Below, piece by piece: positions 19,692 through 54,511 of a DNA stretch of 64,000 bases. The stretch is from assembly GCF_003790525.1 (NCBI RefSeq), contig NZ_CP033635.1. One strand, given 5' to 3'. The stretch comes from Escherichia coli (GTDB lineage Bacteria > Pseudomonadota > Gammaproteobacteria > Enterobacterales > Enterobacteriaceae). The notes beneath the pieces are model-generated. The model was not told where the DNA came from, did no database searches, and saw only the letters and a program-made list of their open reading frames with translations. The stretch's first letter is position 1. Each line of letters begins with the position of its first letter. Made by a program: the position numbers and the translations under genes.

Positions 19692-19729
19692 GATGCCGGA
19701 TGCGGCGTGAATTCCTTATCCGGTCTACA
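19692..19729. repeat. REP (repetitive extragenic palindromic) element
   Basis: gatgccggatgcggcgtgaattccttatccggtctaca shows the canonical REP palindrome. Confidence 0.75.
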
Positions 19730-19763
19730 AAATTTGCAAATCCAAAGCATTGTATTAAGAAGT

Positions 19764-19796
19764 GGCCTGATAAACATAACACATCAGGCCATTTTC
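19764..19796. terminator. Hairpin between convergent yjdF and melB
   Basis: Stem ggcctgat / atcaggcc with 11-nt loop, then attttc. Confidence 0.5.
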
Positions 19797-24082: not shown

Positions 24083-26350
24083 ATGAAAGTATTAATTGTT
24101 GAAAGCGAGTTTCTCCATCAAGACACCTGGGTCGGTAACGCCGTTGAGCGTCTGGCAGATGCTTTAAGCCAGCAAAATGTTATCGTGATTAAATCCACCT
24201 CCTTTGATGATGGTTTTGCCATTCTCTCTTCAAACGAAGCCATTGACTGCCTGATGTTCAGCTACCAAATGGAACATCCGGACGAACATCAAAACGTCAG
24301 ACAATTGATCGGTAAGCTTCATGAGCGCCAACAAAACGTGCCGGTCTTCCTGTTGGGTGATCGGGAAAAAGCCCTCGCCGCAATGGACCGGGATCTGCTG
24401 GAGCTTGTCGATGAATTCGCCTGGATACTGGAAGATACCGCCGACTTTATCGCCGGACGCGCCGTTGCCGCGATGACCCGCTACCGCCAGCAGCTGTTGC
24501 CGCCACTGTTCAGCGCGCTGATGAAATATAGCGACATCCATGAATATTCCTGGGCAGCGCCAGGCCACCAGGGCGGCGTTGGTTTTACTAAAACACCCGC
24601 CGGACGTTTCTACCATGACTACTATGGTGAAAACCTGTTCCGCACCGACATGGGCATCGAACGCACTTCCCTCGGTTCTTTGCTTGACCATACTGGCGCA
24701 TTTGGCGAAAGCGAAAAATATGCCGCACGCGTATTTGGTGCCGATCGCTCCTGGTCGGTAGTCGTCGGTACTTCCGGCTCTAACCGCACCATCATGCAGG
24801 CTTGCATGACCGATAACGATGTCGTGGTCGTTGACCGTAACTGCCATAAATCCATCGAACAAGGCTTGATGCTGACAGGCGCGAAACCGGTCTACATGGT
24901 GCCAAGCCGCAACCGCTACGGCATTATCGGGCCAATCTATCCGCAGGAAATGCAACCTGAAACCTTGCAGAAGAAAATCAATGAAAGCCCGCTGACTAAA
25001 GACAAAGCCGGGCAAAAACCGTCTTACTGCGTGGTGACCAACTGCACCTATGACGGCGTGTGTTATAACGCTAAAGAAGCACAGGATCTGCTGGAAAAAA
25101 CCTCCGATCGTCTGCACTTTGACGAAGCCTGGTACGGCTATGCACGTTTCAACCCGATCTATGCCGATCACTATGCCATGCGCGGCGAACCTGGCGATCA
25201 CAACGGTCCTACCGTTTTCGCCACCCACTCCACCCACAAACTGCTGAATGCGCTGTCACAGGCCTCTTATATTCATGTACGTGAAGGTCGTGGGGCGATT
25301 AACTTCTCCCGCTTCAACCAGGCCTACATGATGCATGCCACCACCTCCCCGCTGTATGCCATCTGCGCATCCAACGACGTGGCGGTGTCGATGATGGACG
25401 GCAACAGCGGCCTGTCACTGACCCAGGAAGTGATCGACGAAGCGGTTGATTTCCGTCAGGCGATGGCGCGGCTATATAAAGAGTTCACCGCTGACGGTAG
25501 CTGGTTCTTCAAACCGTGGAACAAAGAAGTCGTCACCGACCCACAAACCGGCAAAACCTATGACTTTGCTGACGCACCAACCAAACTGCTGACCACCGTT
25601 CAGGACTGCTGGGTCATGCATCCGGGCGAAAGCTGGCACGGCTTCAAAGATATTCCGGATAACTGGAGTATGCTCGACCCGATTAAAGTCAGCATCCTTG
25701 CTCCGGGAATGGGTGAAGATGGTGAACTGGAAGAAACCGGTGTTCCGGCGGCGCTGGTCACAGCCTGGCTTGGTCGCCACGGCATTGTGCCTACCCGTAC
25801 CACTGACTTCCAGATTATGTTCCTGTTCTCTATGGGCGTGACCCGTGGGAAATGGGGAACTCTGGTTAACACCCTTTGCTCCTTCAAACGCCACTATGAT
25901 GCCAACACACCGCTGGCGCAGGTGATGCCGGAACTTGTTGAACAATATCCTGACACTTACGCGAACATGGGGATTCACGATCTGGGTGACACCATGTTTG
26001 CCTGGCTGAAAGAAAACAACCCTGGCGCACGGTTGAATGAAGCCTATTCCGGCCTACCGGTGGCGGAAATCACCCCGCGTGAAGCGTACAACGCGATTGT
26101 CGACAACAATGTCGAACTGGTATCCATTGAAAATCTGCCAGGACGTATCGCGGCAAACTCAGTTATCCCGTATCCGCCAGGAATCCCGATGCTGCTGTCT
26201 GGTGAAAACTTCGGCGATAAAAACAGTCCGCAAGTAAGTTATTTACGCTCGCTGCAATCCTGGGACCATCATTTCCCTGGATTTGAACACGAAACAGAAG
26301 GGACAGAAATTATTGACGGTATTTACCACGTTATGTGTGTGAAAGCGTAA
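24083..26350 (+). CDS. adiA: Acid-inducible (biodegradative) arginine decarboxylase
   Basis: 755 aa from MKVLIVESEF…; paralogous architecture to CadA. Confidence 0.95.
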   Translation: MKVLIVESEFLHQDTWVGNAVERLADALSQQNVIVIKSTSFDDGFAILSSNEAIDCLMFSYQMEHPDEHQNVRQLIGKLHERQQNVPVFLLGDREKALAAMDRDLLELVDEFAWILEDTADFIAGRAVAAMTRYRQQLLPPLFSALMKYSDIHEYSWAAPGHQGGVGFTKTPAGRFYHDYYGENLFRTDMGIERTSLGSLLDHTGAFGESEKYAARVFGADRSWSVVVGTSGSNRTIMQACMTDNDVVVVDRNCHKSIEQGLMLTGAKPVYMVPSRNRYGIIGPIYPQEMQPETLQKKINESPLTKDKAGQKPSYCVVTNCTYDGVCYNAKEAQDLLEKTSDRLHFDEAWYGYARFNPIYADHYAMRGEPGDHNGPTVFATHSTHKLLNALSQASYIHVREGRGAINFSRFNQAYMMHATTSPLYAICASNDVAVSMMDGNSGLSLTQEVIDEAVDFRQAMARLYKEFTADGSWFFKPWNKEVVTDPQTGKTYDFADAPTKLLTTVQDCWVMHPGESWHGFKDIPDNWSMLDPIKVSILAPGMGEDGELEETGVPAALVTAWLGRHGIVPTRTTDFQIMFLFSMGVTRGKWGTLVNTLCSFKRHYDANTPLAQVMPELVEQYPDTYANMGIHDLGDTMFAWLKENNPGARLNEAYSGLPVAEITPREAYNAIVDNNVELVSIENLPGRIAANSVIPYPPGIPMLLSGENFGDKNSPQVSYLRSLQSWDHHFPGFEHETEGTEIIDGIYHVMCVKA

Positions 26351-31342: not shown

Positions 31343-32434
31343 ATGCGTTTTCTGCGCCGACCAATATCGCTGCGCCAACGGCTGATATTGACCATCGGGG
31401 CCATTTTGTTGGTGTTTGAGCTGATCAGCGTCTTCTGGCTATGGCATGAAAGTACCGAGCAGATTCAGCTGTTTGAGCAGGCGCTACGCGACAATCGCAA
31501 CAACGATCGCCACATCATGCGTGAGATCCGCGAGGCGGTCGCCAGCCTGATTGTCCCCGGCGTCTTTATGGTCAGCCTGACGCTATTTATCTGCTATCAG
31601 GCGGTACGCCGCATCACCCGCCCGCTGGCGGAGCTGCAAAAAGAGCTGGAAGCGCGCACCGCCGACAACTTAACGCCCATTGCCATTCACAGCGCCACCC
31701 TCGAAATCGAAGCGGTGGTTTCAGCGTTAAACGATCTGGTCAGTCGCCTGACCAGCACGCTGGATAACGAAAGGTTGTTTACCGCTGACGTCGCGCACGA
31801 ACTGCGAACGCCACTGGCGGGGGTGCGTTTGCATCTGGAACTGCTGGCGAAAACGCATCACATTGATGTAGCACCGTTAGTGGCTCGACTTGATCAGATG
31901 ATGGAGAGTGTCTCCCAGCTGCTGCAACTGGCGCGTGCCGGACAGTCATTTTCTTCCGGGAATTATCAACATGTAAAACTGCTGGAAGATGTCATTCTCC
32001 CCTCGTATGACGAACTCAGTACCATGCTCGACCAGCGACAGCAAACCCTGCTATTGCCAGAGAGCGCCGCCGACATCACCGTTCAGGGTGATGCAACCCT
32101 GCTGCGGATGTTATTGCGAAACCTGGTAGAAAACGCCCATCGTTACAGCCCGCAAGGCAGCAACATTATGATTAAGCTGCAAGAAGATGGCGGAGCAGTC
32201 ATGGCCGTTGAAGATGAAGGACCGGGTATTGATGAGAGTAAATGCGGGGAGTTGAGTAAAGCGTTTGTACGTATGGACAGCCGTTATGGCGGGATTGGTC
32301 TGGGGTTAAGTATTGTCAGCCGCATTACACAGTTGCATCACGGGCAGTTTTTCCTGCAAAACCGGCAAGAGACTTCCGGCACGCGGGCCTGGGTACGGCT
32401 GAAGAAAGATCAGTACGTGGTAAACCAGATATAA
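31343..32434 (+). CDS. basS: Sensor histidine kinase BasS (PmrB)
   Basis: 363 aa from MRFLRRPISLRQRL…; transmembrane, HAMP, HisKA and HATPase domains. Confidence 0.93.
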   Translation: MRFLRRPISLRQRLILTIGAILLVFELISVFWLWHESTEQIQLFEQALRDNRNNDRHIMREIREAVASLIVPGVFMVSLTLFICYQAVRRITRPLAELQKELEARTADNLTPIAIHSATLEIEAVVSALNDLVSRLTSTLDNERLFTADVAHELRTPLAGVRLHLELLAKTHHIDVAPLVARLDQMMESVSQLLQLARAGQSFSSGNYQHVKLLEDVILPSYDELSTMLDQRQQTLLLPESAADITVQGDATLLRMLLRNLVENAHRYSPQGSNIMIKLQEDGGAVMAVEDEGPGIDESKCGELSKAFVRMDSRYGGIGLGLSIVSRITQLHHGQFFLQNRQETSGTRAWVRLKKDQYVVNQI

Positions 32435-32499
32435 AGAAAGCTGCTGACCACCAGCACGCTGAACACGGTAGTTAAACTTTCATAAACACGGTTTTTCAT
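32410..32499 (-). CDS. pmrR: 29-aa membrane peptide PmrR, convergent with and overlapping the basS 3' end
   Basis: Below the ORF-track cut-off; the reverse complement reads MKNRVYESLTTVFSVLVVSSFLYIWFTTY*; its last 25 nt overlap the basS coding end. Confidence 0.7.
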   Translation of the reverse strand: MKNRVYESLTTVFSVLVVSSFLYIWFTTY

Positions 32500-32569
32500 T
32501 GCACTCTCCTCCGTTAACCTGGAGGAGAGTATGCGCGTCAGAGATTAAGTGAACCTTAAGAGTTCAATT

Positions 32570-32598
32570 GGCCTGATAAGACAGCGTCACATCAGGCC
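32570..32598. repeat. REP-like palindrome downstream of proP (probable terminator hairpin)
   Basis: ggcctgataag…cacatcaggcc palindrome. Confidence 0.55.
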
Positions 32599-37882: not shown

Positions 37883-38218
37883 ATGTCATTACCACACTGC
37901 CCAAAATGCAACTCCGAATACACCTACGAAGATAACGGCATGTACATCTGCCCGGAATGTGCCTACGAATGGAACGACGCAGAACCTGCACAGGAAAGCG
38001 ACGAGCTGATCGTTAAAGATGCTAACGGCAATCTGCTGGCTGACGGCGACAGCGTTACCATCATTAAAGATCTGAAGGTGAAAGGTAGCTCTTCGATGCT
38101 GAAAATTGGCACCAAAGTGAAAAACATCCGCCTGGTTGAAGGCGACCATAACATCGATTGCAAAATCGACGGTTTTGGTCCGATGAAACTGAAATCTGAG
38201 TTTGTGAAAAAGAACTGA
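37883..38218 (+). CDS. phnA: Zinc-ribbon protein PhnA (YjdM)
   Basis: 111 aa from [30 protein letters not shown]…; two CxxC pairs. Confidence 0.92.
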
Positions 38219-38237
38219 TTGTATTGTGATCGGTAAG

Positions 38238-38312
38238 CCGGATAAGGCGCTCGCGCCGCATCCGGCAACGATGCCGACTGCCTGATGCGACGCTGACCGC
38301 GTCTTATCAGGC
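38238..38312. repeat. BIME: two REP elements in inverted orientation
   Basis: gccggataaggcgctcgcgccgcatccggca and gcctgatgcgacgctgaccgcgtcttatcaggc. Confidence 0.8.
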
Positions 38313-38377
38313 TTCCCTCTCATCTGTATAAATTTCGAACTACACTTAACTGGCTTCTCTTAACTGAGGTCACCATC

Positions 38378-38821
38378 ATGCCGTTAAGTCCCTACCTCTC
38401 TTTTGCCGGTAACTGTGCCGACGCAATTGCTTATTATCAACGTACGTTGGGCGCTGAACTGCTCTATAAAATCAGCTTCGGCGAAATGCCAAAATCAGCG
38501 CAGGATAGCGCCGAGAACTGCCCTTCCGGAATGCAATTTCCCGATACCGCCATCGCTCATGCCAACGTGCGCATTGCAGGAAGCGACATCATGATGAGCG
38601 ATGCTATACCGTCAGGAAAAGCCAGCTACTCCGGCTTTACGCTGGTGCTCGATTCGCAACAGGTCGAAGAAGGAAAACGCTGGTTTGACAACCTTGCCGC
38701 TAACGGAAAAATCGAAATGGCCTGGCAGGAAACTTTCTGGGCGCATGGCTTCGGCAAAGTCACCGATAAATTTGGCGTACCGTGGATGATTAATGTCGTC
38801 AAACAACAACCAACGCACTAA
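38378..38821 (+). CDS. yjdN: Glyoxalase/bleomycin-resistance-fold protein YjdN (PhnB)
   Basis: 147-aa ORF matching E. coli YjdN/PhnB. Confidence 0.9.
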   Translation: MPLSPYLSFAGNCADAIAYYQRTLGAELLYKISFGEMPKSAQDSAENCPSGMQFPDTAIAHANVRIAGSDIMMSDAIPSGKASYSGFTLVLDSQQVEEGKRWFDNLAANGKIEMAWQETFWAHGFGKVTDKFGVPWMINVVKQQPTH

Positions 38822-40847: not shown

Positions 40848-41627
40848 ATGCAAACCATCACCATCGCCCCACCCAAGCGCAGCTGGTTCTCGCTTCTGAG
40901 CTGGGCCATTGTTCTCGCCGTGTTGGTCGTCTCGTGGCAGGGCGCGGAAATGGCCCCGCTTACGCTGATCAAAGACGGCGGCAACATGGCGACGTTCGCT
41001 GCCGACTTCTTCCCGCCCGATTTCAGCCAGTGGCAGGATTACCTCACCGAAATGGCCGTCACGCTGCAAATCGCCGTCTGGGGCACCGCGCTGGCGGTGG
41101 TTCTCTCCATCCCCTTCGGTCTGATGAGCGCCGAAAACCTGGTGCCGTGGTGGGTTTACCAGCCCGTACGCCGCCTGATGGACGCCTGCCGCGCCATTAA
41201 CGAAATGGTCTTCGCCATGCTGTTCGTGGTCGCCGTCGGCCTTGGCCCGTTCGCTGGCGTGCTGGCGCTGTTTATCCACACCACCGGCGTGCTCTCCAAG
41301 CTGCTTTCCGAAGCGGTAGAAGCGATCGAACCCGGCCCGGTGGAGGGCATTCGCGCCACCGGTGCCAACAAGCTGGAAGAGATCCTCTACGGCGTGCTGC
41401 CACAGGTGATGCCGCTGCTGATCTCCTACTCCCTCTATCGTTTCGAATCCAACGTCCGCTCGGCGACCGTCGTCGGCATGGTCGGTGCAGGCGGGATCGG
41501 CGTCACCCTGTGGGAAGCGATTCGCGGTTTCCAGTTCCAGCAAACCTGCGCCCTGATGGTGCTGATTATCGTCACGGTCAGCCTGCTGGATTTCCTCTCT
41601 CAACGGTTGCGTAAGCACTTTATCTGA
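40848..41627 (+). CDS. phnE: Phosphonate ABC transporter permease (intact)
   Basis: 259-aa uninterrupted ORF; the K-12 allele carries a frameshifting 8-bp duplication. Confidence 0.92.
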
Positions 41628-44471: not shown

Positions 44472-45309
44472 TCTGAGCGGCTACAACTTTGCCTACCTCG
44501 ACGAGCAGACCAAACGCATGATCCGCCGCGCCATCTTAAAAGCGGTGGCGATCCCCGGTTATCAGGTGCCGTTTGGCGGGCGCGAGATGCCGATGCCGTA
44601 CGGCTGGGGAACTGGTGGTATCCAGCTTACCGCCAGCGTGATTGGCGAAAGCGACGTGTTGAAGGTGATTGACCAGGGTGCGGATGACACCACCAACGCG
44701 GTGTCGATCCGTAACTTCTTTAAGCGCGTGACCGGGGTAAACACCACTGAACGTACGGACGATGCGACGCTTATCCAGACGCGCCACCGCATCCCCGAAA
44801 CGCCGCTGACCGAAGATCAGATCATTATTTTCCAGGTGCCGATCCCCGAACCGCTGCGCTTTATCGAGCCGCGCGAAACGGAGACCCGCACCATGCACGC
44901 GCTGGAGGAGTACGGCGTGATGCAGGTGAAACTGTATGAAGATATCGCCCGCTTCGGTCATATCGCCACCACCTACGCCTATCCGGTGAAGGTAAACGGG
45001 CGCTACGTAATGGACCCGTCGCCGATCCCGAAATTCGATAACCCAAAAATGGACATGATGCCCGCCCTGCAACTGTTCGGCGCGGGGCGCGAGAAGCGCA
45101 TCTATGCGGTGCCGCCGTTTACCCGCGTGGAAAGCCTCGATTTCGACGATCACCCGTTCACCGTTCAGCAGTGGAATGAGCCATGCGCCATCTGCGGATC
45201 GACCCACAGCTATCTCGACGAAGTGGTACTGGATGACGCCGGAAACCGCATGTTTGTCTGCTCCGATACCAATTATTGCCGCCAACAGAGCGAGGCAAAA
45301 AACCAATGA
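44464..45309 (+). CDS. phnJ: C-P lyase catalytic subunit PhnJ (radical SAM-like, Cys cluster)
   Basis: 281 aa from MANLSGYNFAYLDEQTKRMIRRAILKAVAIPGYQ…; C-terminal CxxCGS…C…C motif. Confidence 0.93.
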   Translation: MANLSGYNFAYLDEQTKRMIRRAILKAVAIPGYQVPFGGREMPMPYGWGTGGIQLTASVIGESDVLKVIDQGADDTTNAVSIRNFFKRVTGVNTTERTDDATLIQTRHRIPETPLTEDQIIIFQVPIPEPLRFIEPRETETRTMHALEEYGVMQVKLYEDIARFGHIATTYAYPVKVNGRYVMDPSPIPKFDNPKMDMMPALQLFGAGREKRIYAVPPFTRVESLDFDDHPFTVQQWNEPCAICGSTHSYLDEVVLDDAGNRMFVCSDTNYCRQQSEAKNQ

Positions 45310-46064
45310 ATCAACCGTTACTTTCGGTCAATAACCTGACCCACCTTTACGCGCCGGGCAAAGGCTTTAGCGATGTCTCTTTTGATTTATGGCCGGGGGA
45401 AGTGCTGGGCATCGTCGGGGAATCCGGCTCCGGGAAGACCACGCTGCTGAAGTCGATCTCCGCGCGCCTGACGCCGCAGCAGGGGGAGATTCGCTATGAA
45501 AACCGCTCCCTCTATGGCATGAGCGAAGCCGACCGCCGCCGTTTACTGCGCACCGAATGGGGCGTGGTACATCAGCATCCGCTCGACGGCCTGCGCCGCC
45601 AGGTATCGGCAGGCGGCAATATCGGCGAGCGGCTGATGGCGACCGGGGCGCGTCATTACGGCGACATCCGCGCCACCGCGCAGAAGTGGCTGGAAGAGGT
45701 GGAGATTCCCGCTAACCGGATCGACGACCTGCCGACCACCTTTTCCGGCGGCATGCAGCAGCGTTTGCAGATTGCCCGCAACCTGGTGACGCATCCGAAG
45801 CTGGTGTTTATGGACGAGCCAACCGGCGGGCTGGATGTGTCGGTGCAGGCGCGCCTGCTCGACCTGCTGCGCGGCCTGGTGGTGGAGCTGAACCTGGCGG
45901 TGGTGATTGTCACCCACGATTTAGGCGTCGCCCGCCTGCTGGCGGACCGTTTGCTGGTGATGAAGCAGGGGCAGGTGGTGGAGAGTGGGTTAACCGACCG
46001 CGTGCTCGACGACCCGCATCATCCGTATACCCAGCTGCTGGTGTCATCGGTTTTGCAGAATTGA
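45306..46064 (+). CDS. phnK: C-P lyase-associated ABC-type ATPase
   Basis: 252 aa; Walker [10 protein letters not shown]. Confidence 0.93.
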
Positions 46065-46070
46065 GCCGGT

Positions 46071-46154
46071 GCCGGATGCGGCGTAAACGCCTTATCTGGC
46101 CTACAAATGCGCTCCCCGTAGGTCGGATAAGACGCGTCAGCGTCGCATCCGACA
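46071..46154. repeat. BIME (two REP elements) inside the phn operon, between phnK and phnL
   Basis: gccggatgcggcgtaaacgccttatctggcctaca and gtaggtcggataagacgcgtcagcgtcgcatccgac. Confidence 0.8.
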
Positions 46155-46174
46155 CCCGAACCACGAGGCGAAAA

Positions 46175-46855
46175 ATGATTAACGTACAAAACGTCAGTAA
46201 AACCTTCATCCTGCATCAGCAAAACGGCGTACGCCTGCCCGTCTTACAACGTGCCTCGCTCACCGTCAACGCAGGCGAATGCGTGGTGCTCCACGGTCAC
46301 TCCGGCAGCGGCAAATCAACCCTGCTGCGCTCGCTGTACGCCAACTATCTACCCGACGAAGGTCAAATCCAGATCAAACACGGTGACGAGTGGGTAGACC
46401 TGGTCACCGCGCCAGCGCGCAAAGTGGTGGAAATCCGCAAAACCACCGTCGGCTGGGTGAGCCAGTTTCTGCGCGTCATCCCGCGTATCTCAGCACTGGA
46501 AGTGGTGATGCAGCCGCTGCTCGATACCGGCGTTCCGCGTGAAGCCTGCGCCGCTAAAGCCGCGCGTCTTCTCACCCGCCTGAACGTGCCGGAACGCCTG
46601 TGGCACCTGGCACCATCGACATTTTCCGGTGGCGAACAGCAGCGCGTCAACATCGCCCGCGGCTTTATCGTCGACTACCCCATTCTGCTGCTTGACGAAC
46701 CTACCGCCTCGCTGGACGCCAAAAACAGCGCCGCGGTGGTGGAACTGATTCGCGAAGCCAAAACCCGTGGCGCAGCCATCGTAGGCATCTTCCATGACGA
46801 AGCTGTACGTAATGACGTCGCCGACCGCCTGCACCCAATGGGAGCCTCTTCATGA
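46175..46855 (+). CDS. phnL: C-P lyase-associated ABC-type ATPase
   Basis: 226 aa from [11 protein letters not shown]…; Walker [10 protein letters not shown]. Confidence 0.93.
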
Positions 46856-48967: not shown

Positions 48968-49726
48968 ATGAGCCTGACCCTCACGCTCACCGGCACCGGC
49001 GGCGCACAGGGCGTTCCGGCATGGGGCTGCGAGTGCGCGGCCTGCGCCAGAGCACGACGCTCGCCGCAGTATCGCCGCCAGCCATGCAGCGGCGTAGTAA
49101 AGTTTAACGACGCAATCACCCTGATCGACGCCGGGCTGCACGATCTCGCCGATCGCTGGTCGCCAGGATCGTTCCAGCAGTTTTTGCTGACGCATTATCA
49201 TATGGATCACGTCCAGGGGCTGTTTCCGCTGCGCTGGGGCGTGGGCGATCAGATCCCGGTCTACGGCCCGCCGGATGAACAGGGCTGCGACGATCTGTTT
49301 AAACATCCGGGCCTGCTTGATTTCAGCCACACGATGGAACCGTTTGTGGTGTTTGATTTACAAGGGTTACAGGTCACGCCCCTGCCGCTCAACCACTCAA
49401 AACTGACCTTCGGTTATCTGCTGGAAACGGCACACAGCCGGGTGGCGTGGCTGTCTGACACCGCTGGCTTGCCGGAAAAAACGCTGAAATTTTTACGCAA
49501 TAATCAGCCGCAGGTAATGGTGATTGATTGCAGCCACCCGCCGCGCGAGGATGCACCGCGTAATCACTGTGATTTAAATACCGTGCTTGCGCTGAATCAG
49601 GTTATCCGCTCGCCACGGGTGATTCTGACCCATATCAACCACCAGTTTGATGCGTGGCTGATGGAAAACGCACTGCCGTCGGGGTTTGAGGCGGGGTTTG
49701 ATGGGATGGAGATTGGGGTGGCGTGA
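48968..49726 (+). CDS. phnP: Metallo-beta-lactamase-fold phosphodiesterase
   Basis: 252 aa; HxHxDH motif ([10 protein letters not shown]). Confidence 0.93.
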
Positions 49727-49760
49727 TGGGTGAGGGGCGATGCCTGCTCTAAACTCAACA

Positions 49761-51915: not shown

Positions 51916-52851
51916 ATGAATAAATATCTGAAATATTTCAGTGGCACACTCGTGGGCTTAATGTTGTCAACCAGCGCTTTTGCTGCCGCCGAATATGCTG
52001 TCGTATTGAAAACACTCTCCAACCCATTTTGGGTAGATATGAAAAAAGGCATTGAAGATGAAGCAAAAACGCTGGGCGTCAGCGTTGATATTTTTGCCTC
52101 TCCTTCAGAAGGCGATTTTCAATCTCAATTGCAGTTATTTGAAGATCTCAGTAATAAAAATTACAAAGGTATCGCCTTCGCGCCATTATCCTCAGTAAAT
52201 CTGGTCATGCCTGTCGCCCGCGCATGGAAAAAAGGCATTTATCTGGTCAATCTCGATGAAAAAATCGACATGGATAATCTGAAAAAAGCTGGCGGTAATG
52301 TGGAAGGTTTTGTCACCACCGATAATGTTGCCGTCGGGGCGAAAGGCGCGTCATTCATTATTGACAAGCTGGGTGCCGAAGGGGGTGAAGTCGCAATCAT
52401 TGAGGGTAAAGCCGGTAACGCCTCCGGTGAAGCGCGTCGTAATGGTGCCACCGAAGCCTTCAAAAAAGCAAGCCAGATCAAGCTTGTCGCCAGCCAGCCT
52501 GCCGACTGGGACCGTATTAAAGCACTGGATGTCGCCACTAACGTGTTGCAACGTAATCCGAATATTAAAGCGATCTATTGCGCGAATGACACGATGGCAA
52601 TGGGTGTTGCTCAGGCAGTCGCAAACGCCGGAAAAACGGGCAAAGTGTTGGTCGTCGGTACTGACGGCATTCCGGAAGCCCGCAAAATGGTGGAAACCGG
52701 ACAAATGACCGCGACGGTTGCCCAGAACCCGGCGGATATCGGTGCAACGGGTCTGAAGCTGATGGTTGACGCTGAGAAATCCGGCAAGGTTATCCCGCTG
52801 GATAAAGCACCGGAATTTAAACTGGTCGATTCAATCCTGGTCACTCAATAA
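51916..52851 (+). CDS. alsB: D-allose ABC transporter periplasmic binding protein
   Basis: 311 aa from MNKYLKYFSG… with signal peptide. Confidence 0.95.
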   Translation: MNKYLKYFSGTLVGLMLSTSAFAAAEYAVVLKTLSNPFWVDMKKGIEDEAKTLGVSVDIFASPSEGDFQSQLQLFEDLSNKNYKGIAFAPLSSVNLVMPVARAWKKGIYLVNLDEKIDMDNLKKAGGNVEGFVTTDNVAVGAKGASFIIDKLGAEGGEVAIIEGKAGNASGEARRNGATEAFKKASQIKLVASQPADWDRIKALDVATNVLQRNPNIKAIYCANDTMAMGVAQAVANAGKTGKVLVVGTDGIPEARKMVETGQMTATVAQNPADIGATGLKLMVDAEKSGKVIPLDKAPEFKLVDSILVTQ

Positions 52852-52860
52852 AACTGAATG

Positions 52861-52945
52861 ATGCCGGATGGTGATGCTAATGAAGTGTCTTATCCGGCCA
52901 ACAAAATAACCTGAACGTAGACCTGATAAACGTAGCCCATCAGGC
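52861..52945. repeat. BIME (two REP-like palindromes) between alsB and alsA
   Basis: atgccggatggtgatg…cttatccggcc and gacctgataaacgtagcccatcaggc. Confidence 0.7.
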
Positions 52946-52978: not shown

Positions 52979-54511
52979 ATGGCCACGCCATATATATCGA
53001 TGGCGGGGATCGGCAAGTCCTTTGGTCCGGTTCACGCATTAAAGTCGGTTAATTTAACGGTTTATCCTGGTGAAATACATGCATTACTAGGAGAAAATGG
53101 TGCAGGTAAATCTACGCTAATGAAAGTGTTATCCGGAATACATGAGCCGACCAAAGGCACCATTACCATTAATAACATCAACTATAACAAACTGGATCAT
53201 AAATTAGCGGCACAACTCGGTATCGGGATTATTTATCAGGAACTCAGCGTTATTGATGAATTAACCGTACTGGAAAATTTATATATTGGTCGTCATCTGA
53301 CGAAAAAAATCTGCGGTGTCAATATTATCGACTGGCGAGAAATGCGTGTCCGCGCCGCCATGATGTTATTACGCGTGGGCTTGAAAGTTGATTTAGATGA
53401 GAAAGTGGCGAACTTATCTATCAGCCACAAGCAGATGCTGGAAATTGCCAAAACGCTGATGCTCGACGCCAAAGTCATCATCATGGATGAACCCACCTCC
53501 TCACTCACCAATAAAGAGGTGGACTATCTGTTTCTGATCATGAATCAGTTGCGTAAGGAGGGTACGGCTATCGTCTATATCTCGCATAAATTGGCGGAAA
53601 TTCGCCGTATTTGCGACCGCTATACGGTGATGAAAGACGGCAGCAGCGTTTGCAGCGGCATGGTGAGCGATGTGTCAAATGACGATATCGTCCGTCTGAT
53701 GGTAGGCCGCGAACTGCAAAACCGTTTTAACGCGATGAAGGAGAATGTCAGCAACCTTGCGCACGAAACGGTTTTTGAGGTGCGGAACGTCACCAGCCGT
53801 GACAGAAAAAAGGTCCGGGATATCTCATTTAGCGTCTGCCGGGGAGAAATATTAGGCTTTGCCGGACTGGTCGGTTCCGGACGTACTGAACTGATGAACT
53901 GCCTGTTTGGCGTTGATAAACGCGCTGGCGGAGAAATCCGTCTTAATGACAAAGATATCTCTCCACGCTCACCCCTGGATGCCGTGAAAAAAGGGATGGC
54001 TTACATCACTGAAAGCCGCCGGGATAACGGTTTTTTCCCCAACTTTTCCATCGCTCAGAACATGGCGATCAGCCGCAGTCTGAAAGACGGCGGCTATAAA
54101 GGCGCGATGGGCTTGTTTCATGAAGTTGACGAGCAACGTACCGCTGAAAATCAACGCGAACTGCTGGCGCTGAAATGTCATTCGATAAACCAGAATATCA
54201 CCGAACTCTCCGGGGGGAATCAGCAGAAAGTCCTGATCTCCAAATGGCTGTGCTGTTGCCCGGAAGTGATCATTTTCGATGAACCTACCCGCGGCATCGA
54301 CGTTGGCGCGAAAGCCGAAATTTACAAAGTGATGCGCCAACTGGCGGACGACGGAAAAGTCATCCTGATGGTGTCATCTGAACTACCTGAAATTATCACC
54401 GTCTGCGACCGCATCGCCGTGTTCTGCGAAGGACGACTGACGCAAATCCTGACGAATCGCGATGACATGAGCGAAGAGGAGATTATGGCATGGGCTTTAC
54501 CACAAGAGTAA
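52979..54511 (+). CDS. alsA: D-allose ABC transporter ATP-binding protein (duplicated ABC domains)
   Basis: 510 aa; two Walker A motifs (GENGAGKST, GLVGSGRTE). Confidence 0.95.
   Translation: MATPYISMAGIGKSFGPVHALKSVNLTVYPGEIHALLGENGAGKSTLMKVLSGIHEPTKGTITINNINYNKLDHKLAAQLGIGIIYQELSVIDELTVLENLYIGRHLTKKICGVNIIDWREMRVRAAMMLLRVGLKVDLDEKVANLSISHKQMLEIAKTLMLDAKVIIMDEPTSSLTNKEVDYLFLIMNQLRKEGTAIVYISHKLAEIRRICDRYTVMKDGSSVCSGMVSDVSNDDIVRLMVGRELQNRFNAMKENVSNLAHETVFEVRNVTSRDRKKVRDISFSVCRGEILGFAGLVGSGRTELMNCLFGVDKRAGGEIRLNDKDISPRSPLDAVKKGMAYITESRRDNGFFPNFSIAQNMAISRSLKDGGYKGAMGLFHEVDEQRTAENQRELLALKCHSINQNITELSGGNQQKVLISKWLCCCPEVIIFDEPTRGIDVGAKAEIYKVMRQLADDGKVILMVSSELPEIITVCDRIAVFCEGRLTQILTNRDDMSEEEIMAWALPQE

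Follow-up and report, generated by a model that had tools for sequence, protein, structure and literature searches.

Descriptions of REP/BIME elements go back to the 1980s. Newbury et al. reportedly recognized REP sequences in 1987 as mRNA stabilisers in polycistronic operons, and Espeli et al. are said to have described BIMEs in 2001 as attenuators in operons of this kind. Like these stabilisers and attenuators, the elements considered here are intercistronic and form stable hairpins without a U-tract, while the bias toward the upstream genes is for phn and als a prediction. The roles established for REPs are the protection of the upstream mRNA from 3'-5' exonucleases and a partial Rho-dependent attenuation, and expression in tandem gene pairs with a REP between them is biased genome-wide toward the upstream gene, with a median log ratio (upstream/downstream) of 0.96 in 146 pairs versus -0.09 in controls (bioRxiv 10.64898/2026.03.23.713779). 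The same preprint shows that REP325, the array found between yjdM and yjdN in K-12, stabilises yjdM mRNA and attenuates yjdN. Its deletion changes yjdM by log2 -1.74 and yjdN by log2 +3.36, so that the ratio of yjdM to yjdN, 35 with REP325 in place, is 1 without it (bioRxiv 10.64898/2026.03.23.713779). Partial Rho dependence was obtained only with the full array of 12 hairpins; fragments with two and four hairpins were insensitive to bicyclomycin, with no detectable Rho dependence in plasmid tests, and the stabilisation conferred by REP325 fragments was strongly context dependent (bioRxiv 10.64898/2026.03.23.713779). The unit types and the definitions of BIME-1 and BIME-2 used below are those of PMC3333891.

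The window analysed here is a stretch of 64,000 nucleotides of Escherichia coli DNA that is 100% identical to the chromosome of strain SMS-3-5 (NC_010498.1), the annotation of which provided the gene map; the + strand of the window corresponds to the - strand of that record. A first-pass annotation of this stretch had called paired REPs in three spacers and single REP-like hairpins in two others. Hairpins are indeed present at the flagged positions, within a few bases, and it is almost certain that they are ordinary, already known E. coli REP/BIME repeats of types Y, Z1 and Z2. The finding is, therefore, correct, the kind of element has long been known, and REP325 itself, the model element, is the principal site among those flagged.

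The units were typed by their edit distance, on both strands of the window, to three references, Y, Z2 and Z1. The Z1 distances refer to a consensus that we take to be that of Z1. The Z2 reference is the Z2 unit of K-12 REP325, and the Y reference is the published consensus GCCGGATGCGGCGTGAACGCCTTATCCGGCCTAC, as quoted in PMC12306157. The chance level was determined from 60 dinucleotide-preserving shuffles of the whole window, taking the best value of each over both strands; all of these were at least 9 for Y and for Z2, and at least 7 for Z1. Given that seven of the nine units lie at 2-6 edits from Y, Z1 or Z2, against at least 7-9 in the 60 shuffles, their likeness to REPs is far beyond chance; the consensus search that had been proposed as a check was run in this form, and alignment to REP units was found. 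The scans replaced a degenerate 36-nt REP pattern that was too strict, recovering with up to three mismatches only one unit (46118-46153) and no match in the shuffles. A loose head/tail regular expression was also rejected, as it returned many in-gene hairpins (e.g., 24251-24280 and 49272-49309) that are chance palindromes within coding sequence. The RefSeq annotation table of K-12 lists no REP features. The genes and repeat features are collected in Table 1.

Table 1. Positions of the genes and repeat features in the window, in order along the stretch.
Feature	Position	Strand	Basis
yjdF	ends 19675		SMS-3-5 annotation
Y unit, convergent yjdF/melB spacer	19695-19728	+	3 edits from Y; identical in K-12
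Z1-like unit, missed by the first-pass annotation	19762-19790	-	5 edits from Z1; hairpin in predicted folds of both strands
melB	from 19814	-	SMS-3-5 annotation
Lone Z-like hairpin, 12 nt after proP stop	32569-32598	-	8 edits from both Z1 and Z2; predicted hairpin
proP	from 32611	-	SMS-3-5 annotation
yjdM (old name phnA)	37883-38218		SMS-3-5 annotation
Y unit, tail GTAA not GTAG	38233-38266	-	3 edits from Y; aligns with first unit of K-12 REP325
naRNA4 (RF02564) match	38236-38313	+	87.5 bits vs gathering score 59.5, E = 2.9e-14
Head-to-head linker AACGATGCCGACT (13 nt), between Y and Z2	38267-38279	.	read from sequence
Z2 unit, tail TTCC not CTAC	38280-38315	+	5 edits from K-12 Z2
yjdN (old name phnB)	38378-38821		SMS-3-5 annotation
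phnK	45306-46064 (stop TGA 46062-46064)		SMS-3-5 annotation
Predicted spacer RNA structure, both REPs paired in one long hairpin	46065-46169	+	MFE -58.5 kcal/mol, z = -6.65
Y unit, GC/TT mismatch, CTAC tail	46071-46104	+	2 edits from Y consensus
Tail-to-tail linker AAATGCGCTCCCC (13 nt), loop of long hairpin	46105-46117	.	sequence and predicted fold
Z2-like unit GTCGGATGCGACGCTGACGCGTCTTATCCGACCTAC, CTAC tail	46118-46153	-	6 edits from Z2, 7 from Y
phnL	46175-46855		SMS-3-5 annotation
alsB	51916-52851		SMS-3-5 annotation
Degenerate Y-like unit, enlarged loop	52863-52902	+	11 edits from Y; head TGCCGGATG and tail CTTATCCGGCC kept, predicted hairpin
Z1 unit, CTAC tail, partner of 52863-52902	52917-52945	-	3 edits from Z1
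alsA	52979-54511		SMS-3-5 annotation

The architecture of the elements agrees with this assignment. They are imperfect palindromes of 30-40 nt, found mostly as pairs in opposite orientation, in transcribed spacers shortly 3' of genes, and all nine units are extragenic, between annotated genes of SMS-3-5. The pairing of Y with Z2 or Z1 in opposite orientation is as defined in PMC3333891, and was for this reason counted toward REP/BIME identity. The Y and Z2 units carry an internal GC/TT mismatch in the stem, such as GCCGGAT[GC]GGCG...CGCC[TT]ATC at 46071-46104, and GC opposite TT is a described feature of REPs (PMC3333891). An exact CTAC stands at the foot of the stem in four of the units (19695, 46071, 46118 and 52917), and at this position the other five show TTAC, TTCC, CAAC or no counterpart. 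Places similar to the phnK-phnL pair number at least 40 in each of 5,426 E. coli genomes, and those similar to the alsB-alsA pair have a median of only 2 per genome. An Rfam scan at permissive E-values gave no match at the als, melB and proP sites; the naRNA4 model demands a head-to-head arrangement of Y and Z2.

The REP pair called at 38238..38312, between yjdM and yjdN, holds up as a Y and a Z2 unit, and Rfam assigns it to naRNA4 with a score above threshold. What had been missed is that this locus is REP325/naRNA4, already dissected experimentally in K-12. Indeed, the segment 38236-38313 is the allele of REP325 with a single unit, and it is from REP325 that naRNA4 derives in K-12. The location in the yjdM-yjdN spacer, the Y-linker-Z2 unit and its orientation to yjdM are all shared with K-12, and the linker is the counterpart of the constant linker of naRNA units (PMC4550694). 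The naRNA4 match reads in the sense of yjdM transcription, the opposite strand scoring 50.5 bits, and the RNA has a predicted fold of -52.7 kcal/mol (z = -4.95). On the mRNA strand, the stretch 3' of the element is C-rich and G-poor, with a C/G of 2.27 (99th percentile of the window). The differences from K-12 lie in the number of units, which is one in a spacer of 159 nt (38219-38377) in SMS-3-5 versus six in 657 nt in K-12 REP325, and in the tetranucleotide GTAG/CTAC, which neither of the two REPs at this SMS-3-5 locus has in exact form. Across strains, the span of the REP325 spacer corresponds to 1 to 7 units. The commonest allele among 59 evenly sampled genomes is that with one unit, as in the window (33 of the 59), the six-unit array of K-12 being a minority form. 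With Y and Z2 units in alternating orientation, a short linker and a unit number that varies between strains, the element fits BIME-2. Given that only the full K-12 array has shown Rho-dependent attenuation, the effect of the one-unit allele may be weaker.

The pair at 46071..46154, between phnK and phnL, was also correctly recognized, and consists of a Y unit and a Z2-like unit. It differs from that of K-12 by a single base, C to T at 46103. The composition fits BIME-2 (Y and Z2-like units in opposite orientation with a 13-nt linker). Nonetheless, BIME-2 elements amplify in tandem, whereas this pair is unamplified in all of the 52 REP-bearing genomes sampled, and the Z2-like unit has a hybrid head, GTCGGATG, versus GCCTGATG in Z2. 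The pair is, in this respect, more like a REP doublet folding into a single long hairpin, or like an 'atypical' BIME. The matches of naRNA4 over it (46058-46211) reach only 29.5-36.6 bits, below the threshold of 59.5. None of 200 shuffles of the spacer folds as well as the native sequence. The predicted long hairpin begins at the base directly after the phnK stop codon, and its outermost three base pairs touch the Shine-Dalgarno sequence of phnL (GAGG, 46165-46168). The stretch 3' of the pair has a C/G of 1.5-1.64 (88th-95th percentile of the window). Nine diverse strains of E. coli keep the pair; the seven columns that vary among them show one-sided changes throughout. There is, therefore, nothing here that shows selection on the structure; variation among these nine genomes is small, and no compensatory change was found in them. 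In three RefSeq records (NZ_CP068591.1, NZ_CP102853.1 and NZ_AP038228.1) a 'hypothetical protein' is annotated, next to phnK and phnL, where the match covers the REP pair, which is probably a spurious gene call. Elsewhere in the operon, the SMS-3-5 annotation gives an intact phnE of 780 nt (40848-41627), whereas the gene is a pseudogene in K-12 MG1655, which suggests that the phosphonate operon of SMS-3-5 is probably functional without the reversion needed by K-12.

The remaining sites are less regular. At 52861..52945, between alsB and alsA, the Z1 half of the pair that had been called is sound, while the Y-like half falls within chance by consensus alone. The pair is nearly identical in K-12 and is followed on its 3' side by a G-rich stretch. 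It has a linker of 14 nt and a decayed Y unit, unlike BIME-1, in which the linker is long. The hairpin at 19692..19729, in the yjdF-melB spacer, is a REP unit as had been noted, although it is not a single one: a Z1-like partner lies 33 nt away, and the site is, therefore, a pair. Like BIME-1, this is a single-copy combination of a Y and a Z1-like unit with a long (33-nt) linker. The single REP-like hairpin reported at 32570..32598, next to proP, remains a lone short Z-like unit, which is borderline by edit distance. It stands directly upstream of the pmrR/STnc630 transcript, in a spacer that is identical to that of K-12 over its whole length. The Rfam family STnc630, an enterobacterial sRNA, matches at 32403-32568 on the - strand with 183 bits, overlapping pmrR, and the 5' end of this match abuts the lone REP unit.

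Taken as a whole, these sites are best explained as members of the REP/BIME family that act as local, context-dependent modulators at the level of RNA, and the probability of this reading is put at about 0.8. Once transcribed, the G+C-rich hairpins would hinder 3'-5' exonucleases and thereby protect the upstream segment of the mRNA. They would also uncouple translation, and with the help of Rho could cause some transcription to be lost before it enters the next gene. The net result would be an expression tilted toward the upstream gene or genes, which for the phn operon would mean more phnC-phnK message than phnL-phnP message. On one side of the phnK-phnL boundary lie the genes for PhnGHIJK, the core complex of C-P lyase, and on the other those for accessory enzymes. 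The role of stabiliser or processing point that had been suggested for the phnK-phnL pair fits the known biology of REPs and is consistent with the family; it is plausible on these grounds. An effect on phn or als expression would be expected by analogy with REP325 and other REPs, and it is about an even bet that the phnK-phnL pair measurably biases expression. In uninduced K-12 the mean counts are 12 for phnC, 32 for phnK and 118 for phnL; since phnL exceeds phnK, there is no upstream bias in these data, which cuts against a strong effect. The lack of Rho dependence of REP325 fragments with two and four hairpins cuts in the same direction. A literature search found neither a described REP between phnK and phnL nor data on the phnK-phnL transcript under phosphate starvation or other inducing conditions.

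The main rival to RNA-level modulation is a neutral one, in which the pairs would be selfish or hitch-hiking repeats without a selected role, parked in the sole untranslated spacer of a tight operon that tolerates insertions. This account is possible rather than probable. The comparison of this junction comprised the 80 loci listed, among which E. albertii, E. fergusonii and Shigella do not figure. Among these matches, the phnK-phnL spacer is positive in 78 of the 79 other species, with a median of 26 nt, and the neighboring phnJ-phnK and phnL-phnM junctions overlap by 4-14 nt in Enterobacteriaceae. The gap is, therefore, ancestral, and the REP pair is a filler rather than its cause. This bears on the earlier statement that the pair interrupts an otherwise overlapping phn block: among the junctions between phnF and phnP, phnK-phnL alone does not overlap (110 nt vs -14 to +1 nt), as had been stated, but the REP pair has filled this gap and did not create it.

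The patchy occupancy of the spacer among close relatives also argues for a neutral origin. It measures 107 nt in Citrobacter werkmanii versus 9 nt in Citrobacter sp. FP75, and 160 nt in Enterobacter asburiae versus 7 nt in an Enterobacter MAG. Empty sites of 7-9 nt are found in Leclercia, in this Enterobacter MAG and in Citrobacter sp. FP75 (e.g., TGAGGCCAACATG), and in them the ribosome-binding site follows directly on the stop codon. GTAG-type REPs occupy this place in Kluyvera, Lelliottia, Enterobacter asburiae, E. cloacae, Citrobacter werkmanii, Pluralibacter and Cedecea, each with REPs of its own. Within E. coli, the REP allele is present in 4,841 genomes, about 90%, while in 551 of 5,426 (~10%) an unrelated repeat replaces it between exactly the same flanking bases. 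This alternative allele is a G+C-rich palindromic element of 158 nt with a predicted fold of -95 kcal/mol, dispersed at a median of 17 places per genome. We take it to resemble BoxC. The absence of compensatory substitutions in the phnK-phnL pair and the variation of REP325 between 1 and 7 units likewise speak for this account.

Three observations stand against this neutral account. The phnC-phnD (24 nt), phnD-phnE (64 nt) and phnE-phnF (20 nt) gaps of the same operon carry no repeat. The REP and the BoxC-like alleles together account for the 5,392 genomes that hold the flanks, and an empty phnK-phnL allele is apparently absent among these ~5,392; none was found in 59 evenly sampled E. coli genomes. 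Finally, the deletion of REP325 gives a clear local expression phenotype, which means that such elements are not generally inert. At phnK-phnL itself, both RNA-level modulation and neutral insertion would fit the data.

The motifs of the 158-nt BoxC-like element are CCCCTCACCC..CCCTCTCCC / GGGAGAGGG..GGGTGAGGGG. The phnP-yjdP spacer of K-12 holds a 112-nt element of this G+C-rich palindromic family, while that of the window (49727-49760) has 34 nt and lacks it. A PhnL that is 99.6-100% identical to the query is encoded on a contig with the label Pseudocitrobacter faecalis DSM 27453, where the phnK-phnL spacer measures 298 nt and contains the CCCTCTCCC/GGGAGAGGG palindrome four times in tandem; the cause could be horizontal transfer, contamination or a wrong label. 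The alphaproteobacteria Pelagibacterium limicola and Devosia geojensis have phnK-phnL spacers of 210 and 253 nt with G+C-rich inverted repeats, the arms of which resemble the enterobacterial CCCTCTCCC-type element. When the BoxC-like spacers and the foreign REP spacers were searched against Rfam, only spurious, sub-threshold microRNA matches came back.

The alternative occupancy by REP or BoxC-like elements, the lack of an apparent empty site in E. coli, the REPs of related genera and the alphaproteobacterial repeats prompt a further reading, in which the phnK-phnL junction would be under selection to hold some strongly folding RNA element, of whichever family, that divides the expression of phnG-phnK from that of phnL-phnP. 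This reading is unlikely.

The hairpins may also act on translation. A REP hairpin situated less than 16 nt past the stop codon would stall the terminating ribosome and lower the amount of the upstream protein. According to PMC12306157, which cites its reference 17, the upstream gene is translated less when a REP lies within 15 nt of its stop codon. By this distance rule, as stated there, a brake of this kind would cover phnK (6 nt from stop codon to REP stem, 0 nt to the long stem), alsB (11 nt) and proP (12 nt), and not yjdM (18 nt), yjdF (19 nt) and melB (23 nt). At phnK, it would oppose the upstream bias that is predicted. A translational brake is somewhat doubtful as the explanation of these sites, although it is compatible with RNA-level modulation.

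It is improbable that the elements serve mainly as sites on the DNA, with Y/Z2 pairs binding DNA gyrase and Y/Z1 pairs binding IHF, and with an effect on local supercoiling rather than on the fate of the RNA. Binding of gyrase to BIME-2 and of IHF to BIME-1 has been described (literature including PMC3333891), and in its long linker the yjdF-melB pair resembles BIME-1. Nonetheless, the linker of BIME-1 carries an IHF site, whereas the exact IHF core WATCAANNNNTTR is absent from the yjdF-melB linker and from all the other linkers; its only two matches in the window lie elsewhere and are no more than expected by chance.

Even less probable is a role of the yjdM-yjdN element in the organization of the nucleoid, by which a naRNA4-like transcript of 38236-38313 would bind HU, bridge cruciform DNA and condense the chromosome. 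This reading draws on the Rfam assignment of the segment to naRNA4, and on the HU binding, the decondensed nucleoids of a REP325 deletion and the condensation in vitro that were reported in PMC4550694. In the original work the antisense RNA was active too (PMC4550694), which means that the activity of naRNA4 is not sequence-specific, and SMS-3-5 has one unit rather than six. Moreover, a 2026 preprint that shares an author with PMC4550694 reports that deletion or overexpression of REP325 had no effect on nucleoid size, and that neither a stable ternary complex nor long-range REP-REP contacts were found (bioRxiv 10.64898/2026.03.23.713779). Intrinsic terminators, for which the stable, G+C-rich stems would speak, and a promoter for phnL-phnP within the phnK-phnL spacer are contradicted by the scans, given that no hairpin-plus-T-run site overlaps any REP unit in the window, that the phnK-phnL spacer has no U-tract terminator, and that no sigma-70-like site was found on the + strand between 45800 and 46400.

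Two loci of the window have practical implications. At yjdM-yjdN, the array of K-12 is a minority allele and a two-hairpin unit has shown no Rho dependence, so that conclusions on REP325 that are based on K-12 may not transfer to most strains. The phnK-phnL junction offers a natural test bed, since a single species has two alternative structured inserts there and related genera have empty sites; it could serve to ask whether REP-type hairpins set the ratios of expression within operons or are merely tolerated there.
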